A stretch of 63,879 nt of DNA, filler included, from Stramenopiles sp. TOSAG23-6 (Eukaryota), in assembly GCA_900128565.1 (NCBI GenBank). It is 3 parts of 3 records of this genome, joined end to end, with 100 filler letters (N's around TTAATTAATTAA, not from the genome) between each part and the next. Parts side by side here need not be neighbours in the genome. Positions count along the whole stretch, not along the records: positions 22,841 to 45,285 come from LT636013.1; 2 more parts are not named here. One strand, given 5' to 3'. Position 1 is the stretch's first letter. Every line of letters begins with the position of its first letter. A program made the translations under genes and the position numbers. This document shows positions 375-54,328 of the stretch, in pieces. The notes beneath the pieces are model-generated. The model worked only from the letters and a program-made list of their open reading frames with translations, did not search any database and was not told where the DNA came from.

Positions 375-2399
375 TTTTTTTTTTTAAAAAAATTTTTTAC
401 CCTAAAAAAAAAAAAAAAAACAATTGAAGTTCCAAAATGTTTTTTTTTTTCCCTACATGATGATTTCAATTTTTTTTTTTTTTTTTTTTTTTTTTCGTAC
501 ACAATTTCATACCTAACAAAACCAAATCAATGTTTGAAATATTCTCCTATACTATATGTAAACATAACGAAAGAGTTCTACAACATAAGTGTGTTAAATG
601 TCCTATAGGCTCAACACGAAAAGCAGGTGATAATCCAACAGGTCAAAATACAAAATGTAAAAACGTTATATGTAAACAAAGAGAACATGTGATTAATCAT
701 GAATGTAAAAAGTGCAAAGAAGGATGTATGTTTTATTTATTTTTTTACAAAAAAATCGAATTTTTTTTTTTTATAAAAATTTTGTACCTAACGAGTTTTT
801 TCTTGAAATATTTTTCCAAAATACATGGGGTAGACCACTTGGTGATAAAGCGGTTGGTCCTGATACGTTTTGTTCCAAATTAAAATTTTGTAATTTAGAT
901 ATGTATGCTATACAAAATTTTGAATTCGATGATAATGATTCTCAAAATAGTGAAATAATTGAGACTTCATTTATTAAATATACACATTATGCTAAAGGTA
1001 CAGAGGATGGTGGTTCAATTTGTGTAAAATGTCCAAGACCAGATAAATCAGCAAAAAATGCTATTGTTACATGTACAACTGAATTTGATTCTAGAGTCTC
1101 TCAATGTCAACCTGGTCATTATATTGAAGGTGGTATTGAAGCTGATGCGTCGAATGATTCAAACAAGAATAAAAATGATTTGCATTTAGGTGCTCCAGAT
1201 GTTTGTTGGCCTTGTACACCTCCATCTGTATCCTCTGATGTTTGTCAAGAAGATGAATATGTATGTTTTATTTTTTTTTTTTACAAAAAAATCGAGTTTT
1301 TTTTTATAGTAAATTTTGTACCTAACGTTTTTTTTTTCAATTTCGAATTTATTTTTCCAAAATACATTTACCTCACTGCTCTGGAAAGGAACGCATGGAT
1401 GTTGGATGCTTACCATGTCCATCTATTTCACATGCGACACGTGTCAGTTGCTCAGGCAAACCTCCAAAACATTTTAATCAAAGGAAATCAAATACTATGT
1501 CTACAATGAATGTAATCCTATCTTCATGGGTTATTACTTGTGCAAAAAACTATCATAAATCTCAAGATGTATCAAAATGTATCAAAAATGAAACGATGAG
1601 TAGTGTAACTAATGATTCTATGGATGCAGCTATCATTGTAAATGACTCCAATACAAAAATATCAGACAAAAATACAAAAATATCAGACAAAAATACTGGG
1701 CAGAATACTACACAGGGTATGGATACTGAAAATTCATTTGTTGATCTACAAAGTGAAGCATGTATATTTTATTTTTTTTCAATTTCGAATTTATTTTTCG
1801 TACGAAATTTTGTACCTAACAAAAAACATTTTGAAATATTTTTCTAAAATACATTCACAAATGTTTTTGTTGAGCAACAAAGTGAAGCATTTGTAAATAT
1901 TTCTAGACGTTGGGAAATTGGGTATGAAAATATTAAAAAGTTAAGTGGCGATGAAGAAAATATTGTACGTTTTCAAAATTGAATTTTTTTTTTGAAATTA
2001 TTTTTTCATACGAAATTTTGTACCTAACAAAAAAACAAAAAAACAAAAAACAAATATTTTTTCACAAAACATCTTAAACTTGATGATTCTTTTTTCAGCA
2101 TGAAACAAACGATTGAAGAAGCTGCAGATTTACATAGAACATCAATGGAAAGAATTGTAGAATTAGAACAAATAATATTGAAAAAACAAATACATGTAAA
2201 TGAAGAGAATTCGTGTGATGCTATGCAAAAAGGACCGACATTGTTCCCACAATTCATAAATTCATTTTTGAATAAAGAGACAAAAGATTTTATAAATGAA
2301 ACTCCATTAAGTGTTTTAGCGGTTGCTATTGGAGTTGGTTTCAATGTAGCTTGGTCAATGACGAGTCTCTTATCTCTTGTCATGAAATCTTTCTGGTGA
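138..2399 (+). CDS. Cys-rich surface/membrane protein, 5'-partial, at least 6 exons
   Basis: Exons ~138-328, ~556-725, 827-1260, 1368-1761, 1855-1964, 2073-2399. Splicing restores the repeat register (CVKCPIGSTRKAGDNPTGQNTKC vs CKKCKEG|WGRPLGDKAVGPDTFC, both 23 aa) and a QSEAF repeat. Has a WC...WGYC motif (FN2-like, tentative) and a hydrophobic C-terminal segment. Confidence 0.75.
329..555 (+). other. Intron, family member; exact boundaries ambiguous
   Basis: Donors GTATGT at 329 or GTACGT at 333; TTCGTACACAATTTCATACCTAAC near 494-517; no AG near the 3' end, which falls at about 550-557. Confidence 0.55.
726..826 (+). other. GT-AT intron, 101 nt
   Basis: GGAT|GTATGT...TTTTGTACCTAAC...CCAAAATACAT|GG; removal restores the Cys repeat register. 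Confidence 0.85.
1261..1367 (+). other. GT-AT intron, 107 nt
   Basis: TAT|GTATGT...TTTTGTACCTAAC...CCAAAATACAT|TTA; phase 0 joins CQEDEY|LPHCSG. Confidence 0.8.
1762..1854 (+). other. GT-AT intron, 93 nt
   Basis: GCAT|GTATAT...TTCGTACGAAATTTTGTACCTAAC...CTAAAATACAT|TC; restores QSEAF, matching a second QSEAF downstream. Confidence 0.85.
1965..2072 (+). other. GT-AT intron, 108 nt
   Basis: ATT|GTACGT...TTTTGTACCTAAC...TTCACAAAACAT|CTT; phase 0; cannot be redrawn as AT-AC. Confidence 0.8.
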
Positions 2400-16920: not shown

Positions 16921-19900
16921 ATGACTGCGACTTCACTACATGAACGTTTAAGTATTATTGCTTCCCAGTTTGAGGAATTACGCAAACAAGACATTGCAAT
17001 ACGCGATCGTGAAATAGCTGAATTGAAAGAAAAGTTACAAACTTTGGAAAAAAAAGAAAGGGAAAATAAAGAATTACGGGAGGAGAACGTAAGTCTCAAG
17101 CAACAAGTGAGCCATTCAAATGTTGCAATAGAGAAAATGCTATCTACTCACAAAACTGATGTAACTAAACTACGGGATGAACTCCTTAATCTACGCTCGA
17201 AATTACAAGGTAATTCTATCAATGCTATTGATGTTGAGGGGGAACTAAAATCCGTTCAATCAAAGACAGAACAAGTTCTTGTATCTGTGAAAACACCCAT
17301 CGAAAAATTCATCAATACTGTAGAAAATACATGCCCCAATGCAAATATATCTAAAGGCGTGAATATAAATTATGCAAAACCTCGGGGGACATTCCAGGAA
17401 AAACCTATTCTTGAACATAAAGTTTCTGAACATGCAACAATCAATTCTAGTTACACAACAAAAGCATCTAGCAAAGCTGCAGAAGAATCGTTTGATAGAG
17501 AGTCAACCATCTTACCTAGTTCAAAGTCAAATGAAGTTGAAGACAAAAACGTGTCCAAAAATGAAACCGTTGAAGAAGATCATTCTCTAAATGTACAAAA
17601 ACAGGAAATGTTAATGTTTGCTGCAGAACAAGGTCTTGTATGTTTTTCAATTTTTTTCGTACGAAATTTTGTACCTAACGATATTTTTTTTTCGAGAAAT
17701 GTCAAAATATTTTCATCATGAATTTCAATTTCTTTTTCGTCGAAAATTTTTGTTCCTCACGAAAAAATTTCCATAATATTTTTACACAATACATGTCGGT
17801 GTTGTGAAAAAAATATTAGAACCAAAAATTGATACAGAAAATGAAGAGGACATGAAAGAGACGATAAACTTGGCTTTTAAACACGCATGTACGCTTTCAT
17901 CATTTAAAAAAAAAAAAAAAAAAAAAATATTTCGTACGAAATTTTGTACCTAACAAAAAAATTTAATTTTTTTTTGAAATATTTTTTTATAATACATGCA
18001 GTCATGGTCATACTGATGTCAGTTTGTATTTATTAAGCATTGGTGCATCTATTCAATCCACAAATGATTTTGGACAGAATGGACTTCATCTTGCTGCGGG
18101 GAGTGGTTCAAAAGATTTGGTAAAAAAATTTCTTGATCGAGGTATGTTTTATTTTTTTTCAATTTCAAATTTATTTTTTTCGTACGAAATTTCGTACCTA
18201 ACAAATTTTACAGTTTTTTTTTTCACAACACAGGGGCTGATATTGAAAGTAAAGATTGCGATGGCTTAACACCAATGGCATATGCAGCATTACACGATCA
18301 ATCGGATTGTTTAGAATTATTACTTTTTGCTGGTAGTGACACTGAAATACTTGTCTATCGCCCAAAATCAAAGGAAATAGCAAATATAAATATAGGAGAA
18401 CTTTCCAAATCTAAAAAAAATAAAAAAAATGAAAAAAATAAAAAAAATGAAAAAAATAAAAAAAATGAAAAAAATGAGATGATCGAAGAAGAAGATAGTA
18501 CAGCAAATGATATAGATGTTTCGGAACAGTCCCAACCAGTTCCAATTGTAGATGCATGTTTATTCCGTGAATCCAAAGCGTGTATTGAGGTACTACAGAA
18601 TAAGAAAATATTATTTTGGAATTCGTGTACTCGTGGAAATTTAACGTATAATATCGGCAATCATCATGCTGCATTGACACTGTTCAAAAAGGCGCTTCAG
18701 CTTACAATGGACAAAACATTAAATATTCCTGTCAAAGATATTTCTACGATTCATTATAACTGTGCTCGAGCAGCCATGCGCTTATCGAAACATGTTCTTG
18801 CTGTTACACACTGCGATCAAGCAATAGCTTTAAAAGAAACATTTTTCAAAGCGGTTAAACTTCGCGCAGAGAATTTCATGGAACTTCACGATTTTAAAAA
18901 AGCTGTCAAAGATTACGAAAATTTGCTACGGTTACTCCCTGGTGTAGGTTTGTCTGGTGCTTCTTCACCTCCAAGTGAATCTCGTAGCAAACATGCAAGT
19001 GTTTCACCTCCTAATATTCGGAATGGAAACTCCAAAGCAAAGTTAGAAGCTGCTTTGCAAAATGCAAAAGCATTGCAAAATTTAAGTCATTATTCACTAC
19101 TTAACATTAATGAAAAAGCAGATGCTGCAACCATTCGAAAAGCCTATCGGAAAATGTGTTTAAAATGGCATCCTGACAAAAATGGCGGCTCCGATGAAAC
19201 TAGATATAGATCTAGTTTAATGTTTCAAAGAATTAGTAAAGCATATGATGAGTTAAATGATTCTTATAAAAGAATAATGTACGATTTAGAACTCAAAAAA
19301 CAAAAATTGGAAACTGAAAAAAAATGTTTATATAGATCTGCATTTTCAAGGAATGGACTAAGTGGAAGTAAAACTTCAACACCAACAATATTTAGAAGTA
19401 GAAGACGATCGTCAACAGTGAAATCACCACAAAGTAGTATGAAACGTGATAGTAATACACCTGTTGCAAACAATCAAACTAAAAACACATTTTTTTCAAG
19501 TCCTGATTCTGATGCAAATATTAATTTAAAGACAGAAAAACGAACTCCAAAGCATCCAAGATTCAGCGCAACCAGAAGTTCAAGTAAACAATATATGAAA
19601 ACTCCAAAGACACCAAAGGATAGAAATAGTTCTTCATTTTCCACTGGGAAAACTCGGCGTTCATACGTTTCTTCTTCTCAAGCTTCTGAATTTCCTGGGC
19701 ATATTTCGTCCACATCAAACCACTCAGCTACAAATGGTCAATATGTAGGAAAGAGTCCATTAAGTGGTATGTACGACAGACTCAAACGTAAACAAGAGAC
19801 AAGTGAAAGTTTCTCAAATGAAGAATATAATTCAAAAAATGTTCCAATGAATTTACGATTTGATAGTGATAATGGGAATAATACCAGTAGTTCTAATTCA

Positions 19901-22686: not shown

Positions 22687-22894
22687 GTACGTTTTCATTT
22701 CAATTTCGAATTTATTTTTTTTTCGTACGAAATTTTGTACNNNNNNNNNNNNNNNNNNNNNNNNNNNNNNNNNNNNNNNNNNNNTTAATTAATTAANNNN
22801 NNNNNNNNNNNNNNNNNNNNNNNNNNNNNNNNNNNNNNNNTACGAAATTTTGTACCTAACGATTTTTTTTTTGAAATATTTTTCCAAAATACAT
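22687..22894 (+). other. GT...AT family intron sequence split by an assembly gap
   Basis: GTACGT...TTCGTACGAAATTTTGTAC | gap | TACGAAATTTTGTACCTAAC...CCAAAATACAT; both sides are phase 1. Confidence 0.6.
22741..22840. other. Assembly gap with artificial TTAATTAATTAA linker
   Basis: N runs flanking a six-frame stop linker. Confidence 0.95.
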
Positions 22895-32527: not shown

Positions 32528-33698
32528 TCACTTTTTGTATTTTTTTGTATTTTTTGTATTTTTTGTATCTTTTGTATTTTTTGTATTTTTTGTATTTTTT
32601 GTATTTATATCTTTATGTATAGCAATATGGTTAGGGTTAGTGCTATCTTTAAGGGCATATGTCGTAGAAGCTAATGTAGAAGGCACATCATCAGGTTCTG
32701 TTTTACAAAACCAAGAATGTAATTTCAGTGCTCTTATACCGTCATTTGGAAAATTAGGTAAACCTTCCGTATTAATGTTCCACCAATTTATTAATTTAGC
32801 TCCTCTTGGAGCACCAAACAATCGCGCACTCTTTACAAGATCAAACTTTTTAATCCAAATTTGGTTGATACCTATCCCACTACTAGATGAAGTTGGTAAA
32901 CGAAATTTGTCTAATAAATAACACGGTGGGCCATCTTTCAACATTCGCGACTTCGTTTCAGAGCAAGTGGCTTTATTGAATTTATATAAAAAATTATCCC
33001 ACTGACTACGTTGTAAATTTTGAAGACATTCTAAACATAAATACGATGGTCTCCAATATATTTCTCCAATACACTTATACTCACAATAAGTATCATCTGT
33101 AATTTGCTTGTAACAATCTTTGCATACTGAAGATGCTGTTGGCTTTTGGTGACGTACTAACAACTCTGGACGCTCATGTATTGTGAAATTGTTTTTTTGT
33201 AATTTGTTTTGTTAGGTACAAAATTTCGTACGAAAAATAAATTCGAAATTGAAAAAAAATACAACATACATATTTTCGTATTCGTCTTGTTGCTTCTTTT
33301 CGTTGCTTACGGAACTCAAACTTCCTTTGAGATTTTTCTTTTTTTGTCATCTTTAGCAACACACCATCACAGTATACGCGTGGACGCCAAGCTCTATGAA
33401 GTGGTGAATGTCTTTCACGACGTTTCATTTCTACTTCGTCTTTTCGCAAGACGATTTCTAAGTCAGCTTTTGTAATTGGTACTTTGTCAGGTGGTATACC
33501 ATCTTTTCCTCGATCTGGTCTGAGTTCATGAGCTGTCGCATCATCCTGACCTTTTATTTCTAATGAATCAGCATCCCAATATAGAACACGATATATATTG
33601 GTCACTGGATCAACGAAGAGAACTCTACAACCCCACCACCGTCCACTAAGAAAATAAAAAGCGTCATCACCTTGAGAAAAACAAGGGTTGGTATTCAT
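32528..33698 (-). CDS. Hypothetical protein, 2 exons, Cys-containing C-terminal domain
   Basis: Exons 33698-33270 and 33175-32528 join in phase 0 (RKY|ERPEL); CKDC...YCEY...W.PS..C.EC motif. Confidence 0.7.
33176..33269 (-). other. GT-AT intron, 94 nt
   Basis: Minus strand TAT|GTATGT...CAATTTCGAATTTATTTTTCGTACGAAATTTTGTACCTAAC...TTCACAATACAT|GAG. Confidence 0.85.
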
Positions 33699-37525: not shown

Positions 37526-38619
37526 TTACAACTGTTTAGACTTTTTTGAATAAACATTTTCACCCTTTTCATCATGGATGCCATTATTATTTTGTCCAGA
37601 TGAAAGAGATTTTATTGTGTTATTCGTAGATAAACTTCTTTTTTTTCCCAAAATTTGGTCAACTGAAGAATTACTAGAATGAGTGGGTACAATATTTAAT
37701 ATATCTGCACCTTTCATTGGACCTCCAGATGTATTCATATTATGTGTTGCTTCTAGTCCTTTGAAGTATTTCACAGTTTTAACCCGTAACTCTAACGTTG
37801 CATCTTCGTCACAAACAACGCAAGCTCGTGGATGCATTTGAAGCATTGAAACAGTCCACATGTATTTTGGAAAAATATTTCAAAAAAAATCGTTAGGTAC
37901 ACAATTTCGTACGAAAAATAAATTCGAAATTGAAAAAAAAATAAAACATACATGTGACTAATACCTTCCTCAATGCATTTATACATCGCATACGCTTTGT
38001 GTGCACCTGTTATAATAATCAATACTTCGCGTGAATCCATTACAGTACCAACGCCTACTGTAAGCGCCATTTTGGGTACTTTCGAAATGTCATTGTCAAA
38101 AAACCTAGAATTGGCAACTATTGTGTCATAAGCTAATGTTTTCACACGTGTACGTGATGTCAAGCTTGAACCCGGTTCATTGAATGCAATATGCCCATCT
38201 GGCCCAATACCACCCAAGAATAATTCAATACCCCCGTATTGAAATATTTTTTCTTCATATAAACGGCACTCTTCGACCAAATCATTTGCGTTGCCATTCA
38301 GCATGTGAACGTTGTTTGGATCAATGTCCACGTGTTTGAATAAGTTATTCCACATAAAAGCATGGTATGATTCTGGATGATCTTCGGCGATACCGACGTA
38401 TTCATCCATATTGAATGTTGCAACATATTTGAAGCTTAATTCCCCCGCGTTATAAAAATTTACAAGTTGTTTGTATACTGGGATGGGAGATGAGCCAGTT
38501 GGCAACCCAAGAACAAAAAGATTATTGGCACTTGGTGCGTACTCTGTGATACGTTTTTGAACATATTTCGCAACCCAAAGTCCAGCATCATCCTTAGATT
38601 CCTTGATAATAATACGCAT
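37526..38619 (-). CDS. GNPDA: Glucosamine-6-phosphate deaminase, 2 exons
   Basis: [34 protein letters not shown]; exons 38619-37952 and 37859-37526 restore conserved IEEG.SHMWTVS..Q.HP...[20 protein letters not shown]. Confidence 0.95.
37860..37951 (-). other. GT-AT intron, 92 nt, containing no AG dinucleotide
   Basis: Minus strand CACAT|GTATGT...TTCGTACGAAATTGTGTACCTAAC...CCAAAATACAT|GTGG; exact removal is needed for HMWTVS. Confidence 0.92.
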
Positions 38620-40430: not shown

Positions 40431-41809
40431 ATGTTCAAGTGGGCTAAATATATCACCACGCTGTGCTTTCTTTGGATGATGCCAGTTAAGAGTAATAAAT
40501 ACGCTGTTGCTAAGATCGAGTCCTCCGATGGTTCAGCCACTGTTAGTGGTTTCGTTCAGTTTATCCAAATCGCAGACGGTGACGTACTTATGAGTTATTC
40601 TATTACAGGTTTAACACCTGGGAAACACGGTATTCATGTACATCAAAATGGCGATTGCACGGACACAAAAACACTAAAAACATTAGGATATCATTTTATA
40701 CCAATAATGTCTTGTGATCCTGAAGGTGACAAAGACAAGTATGAAGCCTGCAAGAACGTCAGTTTTCACGGTATGCCACCTGAAGTGAAGAGACAATCTG
40801 GTGATATGGGTAATATTGATGTGTCTGCTCAAGGTGTAGCAACGGGCAGTGTCCTACTCGGGCAGTCAAAGCTAAGTCTCACTGATCAATTTTTATCAAT
40901 AATCGGTCGATCCGTTGTAATTCACGCAGGAGAAGATAAGGGCAGCAGTGCACAACCTTGGGGTGATGCTGGTGGGCATATTTGGTATTTATCCAAAGAT
41001 TTTTTCTTTTTACACTATATTAGTATATACTTGTTTTTACTCAGTTTAACTACATTTGATATATCATATACATGACAGCGGAAGCATACGGGATTATTGG
41101 AATAGCTAATCCAGCCATGCTTGTTAATCTTCGTTTACCATATGAACCAAATAAGTGCACAGCAAACAATGCTGCTGATCCAACTAAACCAACTGCCGGG
41201 TGTGCTCCAATTAATCCTGCTCCAAAAACAAACACTGCAATAGCACCGTCGCTTCCTCATGTTCAAAAGGTTGTTTGCAACTTCACTGGTCCATATATCA
41301 AAGGAAAAGCAATTATTTATAAACCAGATTTTTCGAAAGCAGAAGCTACGCTCCAGTCCGAATTTACTGTCACAGAAAAATGTCCTGATGGTTGTAAAAC
41401 ATTATCCTGGCATTTTCATATGTTTGGAGATACACCTTCATTTGACGAATCTAAACCAGATACTTCTCAAAGTATGGGTCCAGTATTTACTTCAGAAACA
41501 TTAGTACTTGATACAATTTCAAGGACAGCAAATTCAAGTGACGTCTATTTTATTGACCAATTTACACCCAAAAGTCTTCTGGATCACGTTGGAATTACAC
41601 TGACGCTACACTCGCCAGCAGGTGGACCACCATATCATCCAACAGTGGCAGCTGCGGTCTGCGGAATTGCTTCTCCAGATACATGCATTGATAAAGATGG
41701 CGGTTGTTCCAAAGCAGTACTAATTCATGGCAATCCTAGTACAACACAAAGCTTAAGTATAGTGTTTATGGTATTCATTATGTCTTCTTCTTTATGGTGT
41801 CAGCAGTAA
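40431..41809 (+). CDS. Secreted/anchored Cu/Zn-SOD-like protein with two SOD-fold domains, 2 exons
   Basis: Signal peptide; GLTPGKHGIHVH, GDMGNI, IIGRSVVIH; second domain WHFH...LTLH...AVCGI; hydrophobic C-terminus; intron at about 40972-41078. Confidence 0.75.
40972..41078 (+). other. Intron, boundaries ambiguous
   Basis: AT-rich interruption between WGDAG and EAYGIIG; possible ends ATACAT (41073) or GACAG (41078); lacks the full family motif. Confidence 0.45.
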
Positions 41810-45285: not shown

Positions 45286-45385
45286 NNNNNNNNNNNNNNN
45301 NNNNNNNNNNNNNNNNNNNNNNNNNNNNNTTAATTAATTAANNNNNNNNNNNNNNNNNNNNNNNNNNNNNNNNNNNNNNNNNNNN
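45286..45385. other. Assembly gap with artificial TTAATTAATTAA linker
   Basis: N runs flanking a six-frame stop linker. Confidence 0.95.
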
Positions 45386-45476
45386 TTTCAAAAAAAAATC
45401 TAAAAAAATTGTTAGGTACAAAATTTCGTACGAAAAAAAAAATTTAAATTTTCAAAAAAAAAAAAAAAAAACATAC
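45386..45476 (-). other. Family intron (5' part), 3' end lost in the gap
   Basis: Minus strand GAT|GTATGT...TTCGTACGAAATTTTGTACCTAAC...TTGAAA. Confidence 0.75.
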
Positions 45477-52261: not shown

Positions 52262-54328
52262 ATGTCCCTTATATTTCAAATACAAAAATTATTGAATCGC
52301 CAATGTCGCTTTTCATCTTCCTGTGGTCAAATTTTAGCTTCTCTCAACAGTTCAAAATTAGAAATCAGAAAAACACAGGCACCGAAACCAAAACCAACAA
52401 ACATCAACTTGGAATTCGGAAAAGTTTTCACAGATCACATGTTAGAAATCGATTGGAATGCTGATACAGGATGGCATACCCCACTCATTAAACCATATGG
52501 TGATATGGCGATATCACCAGCTGCGAGTGCACTACATTATGGTTTACAATGTTTTGAGGGAATGAAAGCTTACATCGATCCTTCAGGGAACATTCGTCTG
52601 TTTCGTCCTGAGAAAAATATGACAAGATTGAGTACTTCAATGAAACGATTAAATATGCCATCATTTGATGAATCAGAGTTTCTTGAATGCATCAAAGAAC
52701 TTTTAAGAGTTGATAAAGACTGGATCCCTAAAGAAAAAGGATTTTCCTTATATATTAGACCAACAGCTATATCTTTGCACTGTATGTTTTTTTCATCATT
52801 TTTTTCATCATTTTTTTTTCATAGAGAATTTCATACCTAACAAATTTAAAATTTTTTTTGTATCATTTTTTTTCATTGAGAATTTCATACCTAACAAAGT
52901 TCAAATTGTACAATATTATTTTCAATATATGTACGCTTGGTGTCACAACAGTGCGTTTATATTATTGATTTCAAATATATTCTGCTAATATTTTGTAACA
53001 CTTGGAATTGTTTTGTATTCAAAACAAAATTGAAATTAAATTTTACATATTTTTGTTTCGTACCTAACAAAACAATTCATGTTTTAGAATATTCTTTCAC
53101 AATACACTCTTTACATACAAAACTGTTTTGTATAATGTGCCCAGTAGGACCATATTTTACTGATGGAATAAAACCAGTGCACTTGCTAGCTGATGAACGA
53201 AATGTGCGTGCTTGGCCTGGTGGAACTGGTGATGTAAAAATTGGGGGTAATTATGCTTGTATGTTTTTTATGTTGATGTCAACATCATTTAAAAAAAAAA
53301 ATTTTCATTTAAATTTTTTTTTTAATATATGGATTTTTATATTGTATTATAATATACAACTAATGAATTATATACTATGAAAATATTTTGTCACTAGTAA
53401 AGCCACTATTTCACCACAAACGAAAGCAACTGAAGATGGATATTCGCAAATACTTTGGTTATTTGGTGATGATCATCAAGTGACTGAAGTGGGTGTAATG
53501 TACGTTTTTTTTTTTTTTTCAAGTTTTTTTTTTGTAGTATATTTTGTACCTAACTAAAAAAAAAATAAAAAATAAAAAAATCACAATACATGAATTTTTT
53601 TGTTTTATGGGAAAAAAAAGATGGTTCAGGAAAAGAGTTAATTACAGCACCTTTAGATGGTACCATGTAAGTTTTAAACCCTAACCCTAATATAATTTCA
53701 TATGTTTTTGTATAGAAAATTTTTGTACCCTTTTCTTTAAAAAAAAACAAAAAAAACAAAAAAATCTCATATAAACATTCCAAAATAAAACATATTTTTT
53801 TCAATATATATTACCGGGTGTCACCAGAAGTTCAGTGATTGAACTTGCACGCTCTATAGGTGACTTTGACGTCACTGAACGAATATTTAATATGGCAGAA
53901 TTAACTGAAGCGATAAACGATGATCGTGTCATTGAAGCGTTTGGTTGTGGTACTGCAGCTGTTGTTAGTCCAGTCAAAGCGATCACTTATAAAGATAAAA
54001 TGTTTTCAATACCTACAGGAGATGATGAAACTATGGGACACTTTTCTAAATTTGTTTTAGAAAAGTTAACTGCAATTCAATATGTAAGTCAAGTATTCTG
54101 AATTTTCAAATGTGTTTTTTTTTTTTTTTGAAAATATTTTTTGAAATGTATTATTTTTTGAAATGTATTATTTACCAAATATTATTTTTTAATAGAAAAT
54201 CAAAAGGTTTCGTGTACTTCTTTGTATCCACTGTATAATATTATTTACCAAATATTTTTTTTAAATCTTGTTTATCAGTATATGGGAATGATAAAGGTCC
54301 TGATGGTTGGTCTGTTGTTGTCAAGTAA
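52262..54328 (+). CDS. BCAT: Branched-chain amino acid aminotransferase, 7 exons
   Basis: Exons 52262-52781, 52931-52950, 53108-53258, 53403-53499, 53592-53666, 53810-54083, 54284-54328 give [85 protein letters not shown]...W. Confidence 0.93.
52782..52930 (+). other. GT-AT intron, 149 nt
   Basis: CACT|GTATGT...GAGAATTTCATACCTAAC (two copies)...TTCAATATAT|GT. Confidence 0.85.
52951..53107 (+). other. GT-AC intron, 157 nt
   Basis: ACA|GTGCGT...TTTCGTACCTAAC...TTCACAATACAC|TCT; gives the expected LGV-to-PVGPY spacing. Confidence 0.75.
53259..53402 (+). other. Canonical GT-AG intron, 144 nt
   Basis: GCTT|GTATGT...CAACTAAT...TAAAG|CC; restores NYASTISPQ; lacks GTACCTAAC. Confidence 0.8.
53500..53591 (+). 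other. GT-AT intron, 92 nt
   Basis: GTAAT|GTACGT...TTTTGTACCTAAC...TCACAATACAT|GAAT; restores TEVGVMNFF. Confidence 0.9.
53667..53809 (+). other. GT-AT intron, 143 nt
   Basis: ACCAT|GTAAGT...TTTTGTACCC...TTCAATATAT|ATTA; restores DGTILPGVTR. Confidence 0.88.
54084..54283 (+). other. GT-AT intron, 200 nt
   Basis: TAT|GTAAGT...TCAGTATAT|GGG; restores IQYG...W; the nearby CAG is out of frame. Confidence 0.8.

Follow-up and report, generated by a model that had tools for sequence, protein, structure and literature searches.

How does a spliceosome recognise the end of an intron that does not finish in AG? The question is raised by an intron in the glucosamine-6-phosphate deaminase gene of Stramenopiles sp. 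TOSAG23-6, which begins GTATGT and finishes ACAT on the minus strand, from 37951 to 37860 (positions refer to the window, i.e. the whole 63,879-nt stretch of DNA analysed). The first-pass annotation had delimited this 92-nt minus-strand intron correctly, and had proposed that a 12-nt palindrome followed by TACCTAAC forms a strong, unusual branch site that defines the 3′ end in place of AG scanning, possibly with the help of a variant U2 snRNA. By itself, the flagged module is less exotic than that, combining a site for normal U2 with a relic palindrome, and a minor slip concerns the spacer between the two, which reads TTGTG (5 nt) and not TTTTG. In all likelihood, the TACCTAAC module provides the branch site for a family of copied introns that, in this marine protist, end in AT instead of AG; the altered snRNA is U1, which the annotation had missed, and not U2. 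Most likely, U1 was altered to match the changed borders of these introns; such a rewiring of the splicing code is rare.

The flagged intron is removed exactly from RNA. One contig of the poly(A) run X4, with a depth of 9.4 and aligned at 85% likeness with 57 nt on its shorter side, skips exactly 92 nt. The protein junction is in agreement: exon 1 matches PDB 1ne7 as far as the splice, and exon 2 picks up at MWTVS (HMWTVS in 1ne7). The skip was found in one of the four RNA-library runs compared, out of 18 runs, which are seawater samples compared as contigs (X4, not X1, X2 or X8, where lack of cover could be the explanation); it is a single RNA contig in a comparison of RNA runs, and an intron-less strain could give the same skip. 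Because of a 6-nt repeat at the junction, the X4 contig leaves the splice register open. For the other introns between 32650 and 45300, no joint was listed in the contigs of these four runs, where cover may be lacking. A backward joint of 72 (37953 to 37882) was considered as a lariat trace and, lying 11 nt off the predicted branch, was not counted. By summed contig depth, a poor measure, element-matching contigs reach at least 10^4 at listed places in X4 and X8 and tens to hundreds in X1 and X2, while a nearby gene has a depth of 1-56 in all four runs; the excess covers 33176-33269 and 37860-37951, and its candidate sources are an abundant relative, DNA or stable intron RNA.

Table 1. Coordinates of the flagged intron, its parts and host exons, and of further family copies in the window
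Feature	Position	Strand	Evidence
GT...AT intron, 92 nt, phase 2, copy of the genome-wide family	37951->37860	-	RNA-library contig, protein junction, intron model
5′ splice site CAT/GTATGTTT (slash, splice site)	37944..37954	-	sequence, U1 pairing counts
12-nt palindrome TTTCGTACGAAA	37905-37916	.	pattern search, alignment, folding
TACCTAAC, predicted branch site (predicted branch A at 37893)	37899->37892	-	counts, conservation, U2 pairing
Tail box: U-run then YCAMAATAC, abutting the last two bases	37862..37875	-	matrix/alignment, partly circular
Terminal AT, identical to exon bases 37953-37952	37860..37861	-	2-bp duplication statistics
Exon 1, glucosamine-6-phosphate deaminase	37952..38619	-	E 1.4e-105 to 1ne7_A
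Exon 2, coding part, glucosamine-6-phosphate deaminase	37526..37859	-	E 3.4e-15 to 1ne7_A residues 221-264
Family copy, AG before donor and AG end (GT...AG), same module	18142..18233	+	module search, intron model
Family copy, GT...AT, exact palindrome and TACCTAAC	33176..33269	-	module search, intron model
Family copy, GT...AT, decayed palindrome, intact TACCTAAC	726..826	+	module search, intron model
Family copy, GT...AT, in a branched-chain aminotransferase-like gene (named by eye)	53500..53591	+	intron model

The motif is strongly over-represented. Exact matches to TACCTAAC number 23 in the window, whereas 100 shuffles gave a mean of 1.18 and a maximum of 4; the palindrome with up to two mismatches was found 24 times (nine exact) against 5.25 expected. 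Across the whole assembly, GTACCTAAC was counted 11,047 times versus 179 for the reversed control, the former being an upper bound because the assembly contains duplicated contigs. Intron calling covered the window and 80 assembly stretches (854,090 bases, some 4% of the assembly). It relied on one matrix for the GT donor, another for the tail and an open frame of at least 75 nt on either side, and was blind to the branch motif, the last two bases and the exon bases. The 137 candidates became 136 after shared ends were merged and 132 after four with less than 74% A+T were dropped; this set is biased towards the family, and a few of its introns are probably wrong at one end. Since the matrices were trained on motif-bearing introns, conservation of the donor (+1 to +9) and of the tail is circular, as for the donor GTAYGTTT found in 122 of the 132 introns. 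Of 54 earlier candidates, 40 had open flanking frames when joined at the predicted end, versus 16, 7, 7 and 16 at shifts of 1-2 nt; a shift of +3 nt again gave 40. Relative to flanking frames, 158 of 200 copies lie in sense, 10 in antisense and 32 could not be assigned. Many similar introns reside in unrelated genes; their nearest-neighbour scores have a median of 0.82, and 4 of the 132 reach 0.95.

Several further observations concern individual copies and the assembly. Of 104 good models in a motif-anchored set (41-61 stretches), 16 lack a GT start (AT 5, GC 3, GA 2, others), and some of these are probably miscalls. By eye, the aminotransferase-like gene at 52783-54090 has GT-AT introns, one of which bears two TACCTAAC modules, together with a diverged intron whose end seems to be AAG, and another diverged intron at about 40986-41073, in a superoxide-dismutase-like gene, lacks the module and apparently keeps an ATACAT end. 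On contigs C2 and C4, motif positions are mirror-symmetric, a sign of an inverted assembly or amplification artefact. Contig breaks often fall at the module, and runs of N with a TTAATTAATTAA linker (about 22740-22845 and 45340-45400) join contigs within family introns. Neither the module nor the U2-U1 pattern had any match in JGI metagenome contigs. The host is stramenopile-like, given that the relatives named for one of its proteins come from brown and yellow-green algae.

Within the 132 introns, TACCTAAC is exact in 104, CTAAC is present in 109 and TACTAAC in one, while the palindrome is exact in 41, which bears out the earlier impression that the 8-mer is kept better than the palindrome. 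The decay test gave the same answer, identity in the most diverged third being 0.92 for the 8-mer (TAC and CTAAC alike), 0.76 for the palindrome and 0.53 for the remainder of the intron. At C/G positions of this third, the values are 0.87 for the 8-mer versus 0.51 for the palindrome. Across the aligned copies, 90-92% retain the 8-mer's three C, against 60-77% for the palindrome's four C/G; the latter fall in CpG and include subfamily variants, and the comparison has no clean neutral C control. An asymmetry at CpG was dropped as proof of selection on the branch C, the palindrome having an equal one; the CpG ratio of the genome is 0.90.

Describing the motif as neither U2- nor U12-type was overstated: the 8-mer does differ from yeast TACTAAC, but its CTAAC core fits the human branch consensus yUnAy (PMC2367711). 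Conservation, position and sense orientation support a branch site, but predicted U2 pairing does not support a strong one, being weaker than for TACTAAC (-2.5 to -3.3 kcal/mol, against -4.7 to -5.9 after removal of one C). The proposed variant U2 did not materialise, the only U2 found by covariance search having a canonical branch-recognition region (GUAGUA); the two matches, at the same place and with the same score of 138.8 bits, are both canonical (47 of 1,185 candidates scored), and the contig bearing this U2 also carries a family copy. Branching at CUAAC through normal U2 is likely, at a predicted branch A. In this scheme, G33-G36 of canonical U2 would pair with CUA[A]C, and U37-U39, judged by inspection, would probably pair with the upstream R-U-A with one C bulged; a purine, G or A, occupies position -7 in 97% of 113 introns. 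The folding program did not return this double-bulge helix as the optimum. The TAC may be kept because of the bulged U2 helix or of a branch-binding protein; SF1 had no match in a genome search run without a positive control.

For the palindrome, a role as an RNA hairpin was rejected. The 12-mer folds neither alone nor within the intron, the C4-G9 pair had a probability of 0.00 in 29 of 29 exact copies among 70 folded introns (mean z -0.9; 17% below -2), and single-sided changes at symmetric positions (123) predominate over double ones (61, 23 of them complementary). The palindrome decays with age, and we read it as an inherited, DNA-level relic of the element.

The intron borders differ from the canonical code most clearly at the 3′ end, where 106 of the 132 introns finish in AT, nine in TT, six in GT, five otherwise and only six in the AG of the canonical GT-AG class. 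The last two bases commonly repeat the last two of the preceding exon (AT with AT 87, TT with TT 7, GT with GT 5, AG with AG 2, AA with AA 1): matches at non-AT ends number 15 versus 1.8 expected (maximum 8 in 20,000 permutations), and the match is limited to two bases, flanked by C and G. No match is seen for eleven of 26 non-AT ends or for 19 of 106 AT ends. At the level of sequence, these statistics demonstrate that 2 bp of a (C)AT(G) target are duplicated, and since the intron end duplicates the last two bases of the exon, the acceptor would be target DNA, mostly AT. In the flagged intron, we read the terminal AT as a 2-bp target duplication serving as acceptor. Non-AT duplicates are XT in 12 cases versus AX in three (p 0.018), and since a symmetric target preference predicts equal numbers, this suggests that splicing favours a final T.

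Just before the cut sits TTYCAMAATAC, the extended tail that had been proposed, represented in the flagged intron by a U-run plus CCAAAATAC. The evidence for this tail box is partly circular because the tail was used to place intron ends; positioned next to the cut, it is the best candidate for 3′-end definition. Its closing ATAC is the reverse complement of the GTAT intron start, which gives an inverted repeat of 4 bp. The replacement of AG scanning held up: AG occurs between branch and end in 34 of 113 introns, and among 107 non-AG introns there are 27 that pass over a CAG, TAG or AAG lying at least 9 nt past the branch A, the use of which would shift the frame or meet a stop in 20 of the 27. 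A mean of 4.3 AT dinucleotides per intron are skipped as well, as had been noticed. The near-fixed spacing stood in part, 98 of 113 introns falling at 31-44 nt, but with a range of 22-53 nt from branch A to last base (5-95%, 32-46; sd 5.6) and modes near 34 and 43 (59 versus 54 copies either side of 38), it is no ruler; in the flagged intron, 32 nt lie downstream of CTAAC. We propose that the U-run and the YCAMAAUAC tail set the 3′ end, instead of AG scanning or a fixed distance, and that the last two bases would be whatever the insertion duplicated, with U preferred last. The candidates searched in the genome yielded no tail-reading protein.

At the donor, U1 provides a counterpart to the altered borders. 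Its 5′ arm reads AAACGUACAUG; compared with the Rfam consensus, three positions are changed (2, 5 and 9). The gene matches with E 8e-12 and, aligned over the whole Rfam model (1-166) with an Sm site, with E 5e-13, at a score of 54 bits that is under the 69.5 cut-off (41 of 253 candidates scored). On average, 10.3 of 11 positions pair with the donors, compared with 7.4 for an in silico arm in which all three changes are undone, and the mean duplex energy is -10.2 versus -2.0 kcal/mol; reverting position 9 alone gives -7.4, a cost of 2.8 kcal/mol. The flagged 5′ splice site pairs at 11 of 11 positions, one being G-U. Exon position -1, for which the search did not select, is T in 121 of 132 introns against a background of 0.31. 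The U1 arm pairs with CAU/GUAYGUUU and would select the GT donor, its changed nucleotide 9 (A) reading the exon -1 U; judged from the gene sequence, donor choice by the altered U1 is likely. A second U1 may be missing from the incomplete assembly.

The genes for U1, U2, U4, U5 and U6 are all present (U1 under the cut-off), and the motifs checked in U2, U4, U5 and U6 have canonical sequences, with U6 keeping ACAGAGA and the U5 loop reading GCCUUUUAC. U5, U2, U1 and U4 lie head to tail on contig C1146 (L049, 9-645; same start on C6122) with spacers of 2, 23 and 5 nt, a tight spacing that suggests one precursor transcript, and U6 is on another contig. C1146 itself carries a family copy. Among splicing proteins, Prp8 was discarded as a cause, its alpha-finger NAQRSG being intact; the substitution test is weak because 93 of 114 comparators had one common motif set. 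This Prp8 (L010:2085-8150, minus strand) has no listed relative above 86% identity and shows changes at otherwise constant motifs, e.g. RKGML to RPFLL. A U2AF65-like protein (L071:664-2628, minus strand) has two RRM1-type domains and a UHM, a layout as in brown algae; as a cause it was set aside, the two RRM1-type domains being common to Pylaiella, Discosporangium and Chrysoparadoxa. Canonical U2AF65 was not among the matches examined, nor U2AF35 among 16 zinc-finger matches.

A further idea, to which we assign a rather low probability, is that the change at U1 nucleotide 9 serves both junctions, converting a code of CAG/GU...CAG/G into CAU/GU...CAU/G, with nucleotides 8-11 also reading the terminal CAU/G in place of U2AF35. 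CAT ends in 93 of 132 introns and a G at exon +1 in 71 of 132 would both fit, as would the lack of U2AF35 among the 16 zinc-finger matches; against this, the duplication already makes the junctions alike, the helix would have 4 bp, and introns ending in TT or GT are evidently tolerated too. Pairing of U1 with the 3′ splice site was reportedly proposed in fission yeast by Reich et al. (1992) and is said to have been rejected in budding yeast by Seraphin and Kandels-Lewis (1993). If U1 did read both ends, the family would be a natural covariation case for such pairing.

As to its origin, the family probably consists of U2-type introns of about 90-110 nt spread as one mobile element, an introner. 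The element would carry the donor, branch and tail, and insertion at (C)AT(G) would duplicate 2 bp and supply the acceptor. Consistent with an introner or MITE, the duplication is exactly 2 bp, although no empty site came to light, and similar introns are found in many unrelated genes; candidate terminal inverted repeats, by contrast, are only 4 bp (GTAT/ATAC), or 3 bp in GTAC copies. The search for a parent transposase covered one family and gave two loci, neither with the ends of the intron family. A Harbinger on C2432 was rejected as parent on account of its 28-bp inverted repeats and other ends. This two-ORF Harbinger-type transposon (L117:502-3610; C2432, also C2433, C2439 and C2440, identical over their shared length) contains a branch-module copy between its ORFs at about 1751-1785.

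Other readings of the module and of the register carry little weight. A variant U2 with an extra G would pair perfectly with UACCUAAC, as the first-pass annotation had envisaged, and the near-invariance of the 8-mer, in its TAC as much as in its CTAAC, its poorer pairing than TACTAAC with normal U2 and the fragmentation of the assembly into 6,236 contigs would suit such a molecule; with both U2 matches canonical among the 47 of 1,185 candidates scored, and one family copy on the very contig that holds canonical U2, we regard it as extremely unlikely. Alternatively, the palindrome and TACCTAAC may together be the DNA binding site of a mobilising protein, kept by copying, with the real branch elsewhere. 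A perfect palindrome suits a dimeric DNA binder, the block from -14 to +1 is conserved as one unit, and one copy lies outside coding sequence, inside the Harbinger element. Selection for mobility, however, cannot act on old fixed copies, where the 8-mer persists and the palindrome decays, and the 8-mer contains a yUnAy core at the usual distance, which makes this reading very unlikely. As for the register, where AT stands on both sides the mRNA is identical if the cuts are placed two bases upstream (AT...AC), with removal by the minor spliceosome or through U12-like pairing, and the X4 contig fits either register. U12-type introns have the branch TCCTTAAC and the donor RTATCCTT; that branch occurs in none of the 132 introns, the donors are those given above, and U6atac had no match (search without a positive control). 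At one of 13 discordant junctions the shifted register meets a stop codon, and two of the 13 keep a residue, which we take to be conserved, only in the GT register. GT...AT is favoured over AT...AC because U1 pairing peaks at GT and falls to 5.9 two bases upstream, and the AT...AC register is hardly credible.

The two remaining alternatives concern the cut and the spread of these introns. A fixed branch-to-end distance is found in Giardia, Trichomonas and U12 introns, and a ruler of this kind could account for the clustering of most introns within 31-44 nt and for the dispensability of AG; the wide range and the two modes make it highly improbable as the means of measuring the 3′ cut, although a loose distance window may still contribute. 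Finally, splicing could be as we propose while the introns spread via RNA, by reverse splicing into U1-matching CAU/G sites instead of DNA transposition. That copies are almost all sense and genic, that no matching transposase was found (one family searched) and that 13 junctions combine exon XT with an intron-end AT would be expected of such a process. But reverse splicing would not copy exon bases, and matching TT, GT, AG and AA pairs are nonetheless observed; seven of the 13 discordant junctions are moreover in phase 1 (p 0.05), which puts exon -2 at a wobble position, and we consider this route unlikely. Taken as a whole, the preferred explanation, in which a branch site, an altered U1, a tail-set end and an introner with a 2-bp duplication act together, appears probable to us.

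Among known systems, the closest likeness is to the tunicates Fritillaria borealis and F. pellucida, where most introns are non-AG and more of them finish in AT (34% and 44%) than in any other dinucleotide (PMC13326754, PMC11282704). Shared with the present, stramenopile-like lineage are this commonest end, YAY before the donor and at the end, and transposon marks (PMC13326754, PMC11282704), along with conservation of the U2 branch region, the U5 loop and U6 ACAGAGA (PMC13326754). The donors of Fritillaria, however, are AG and others and its U1 5′ end is strictly preserved, whereas here donors are mostly GT and that end carries three changes; for Fritillaria, U2AF paralogues and m6A changes have been invoked (PMC13326754). 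Co-evolved U1 variants have been described in Mastigamoeba balamuthi (ACGUAC) and Entamoeba (ACAAAC), the former sharing the position 5 change and an identical ACGUAC core that pairs with GUACGU; in the portion consulted, that report concerns intron +3/+4, and we did not encounter there a match of position 9 to exon -1 U combined with AT ends (10.1101/2022.06.08.495308). The U1 variants of diplonemids differ from the present one (PMC12621601).

Like the introners of Micromonas, Aureococcus and others, the family is a short repeat that brings a donor and co-opts a duplicated acceptor, but the known ones co-opt AG, and here it is mostly AT, TT or GT; the PNAS introner survey covered 3′ sites AG and AC, with others checked by hand (PMC11282704, PMC12130899). 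ISL2EU elements (PHIS superfamily) also make a 2-bp AT target duplication, although their target is A-AT-T (PMC4482050), as opposed to C-AT-G here, and the one transposase family searched gave no matching element. With ordinary U2 branch sites the motif shares the CUAAC core and a canonical U2, and the human spacing of 21-34 nt overlaps its lower mode; it differs from these and from yeast UACUAAC by an extra C between UAC and UAAC that most copies retain, longer spacing, an A-rich tail and no AG (PMC2367711). Our literature search found no report of genome-wide GT-AT introns in stramenopiles or of a U1 position-9 change; supplementary catalogues (PMC12130899) could list the family.

The weight of the finding lies more in the AT-ending system and U1 than in the palindrome. 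If true, it would provide a second lineage, far from tunicates, in which most introns lack a terminal AG, with the problem solved differently, via U1 base pairing at the exon side. Gene finders that require AG will break these genes. With roughly ten thousand copies, nature would have supplied a mutational scan that covers donor, branch and acceptor, and one could test whether the spliceosome can be pulled along by a mobile element.
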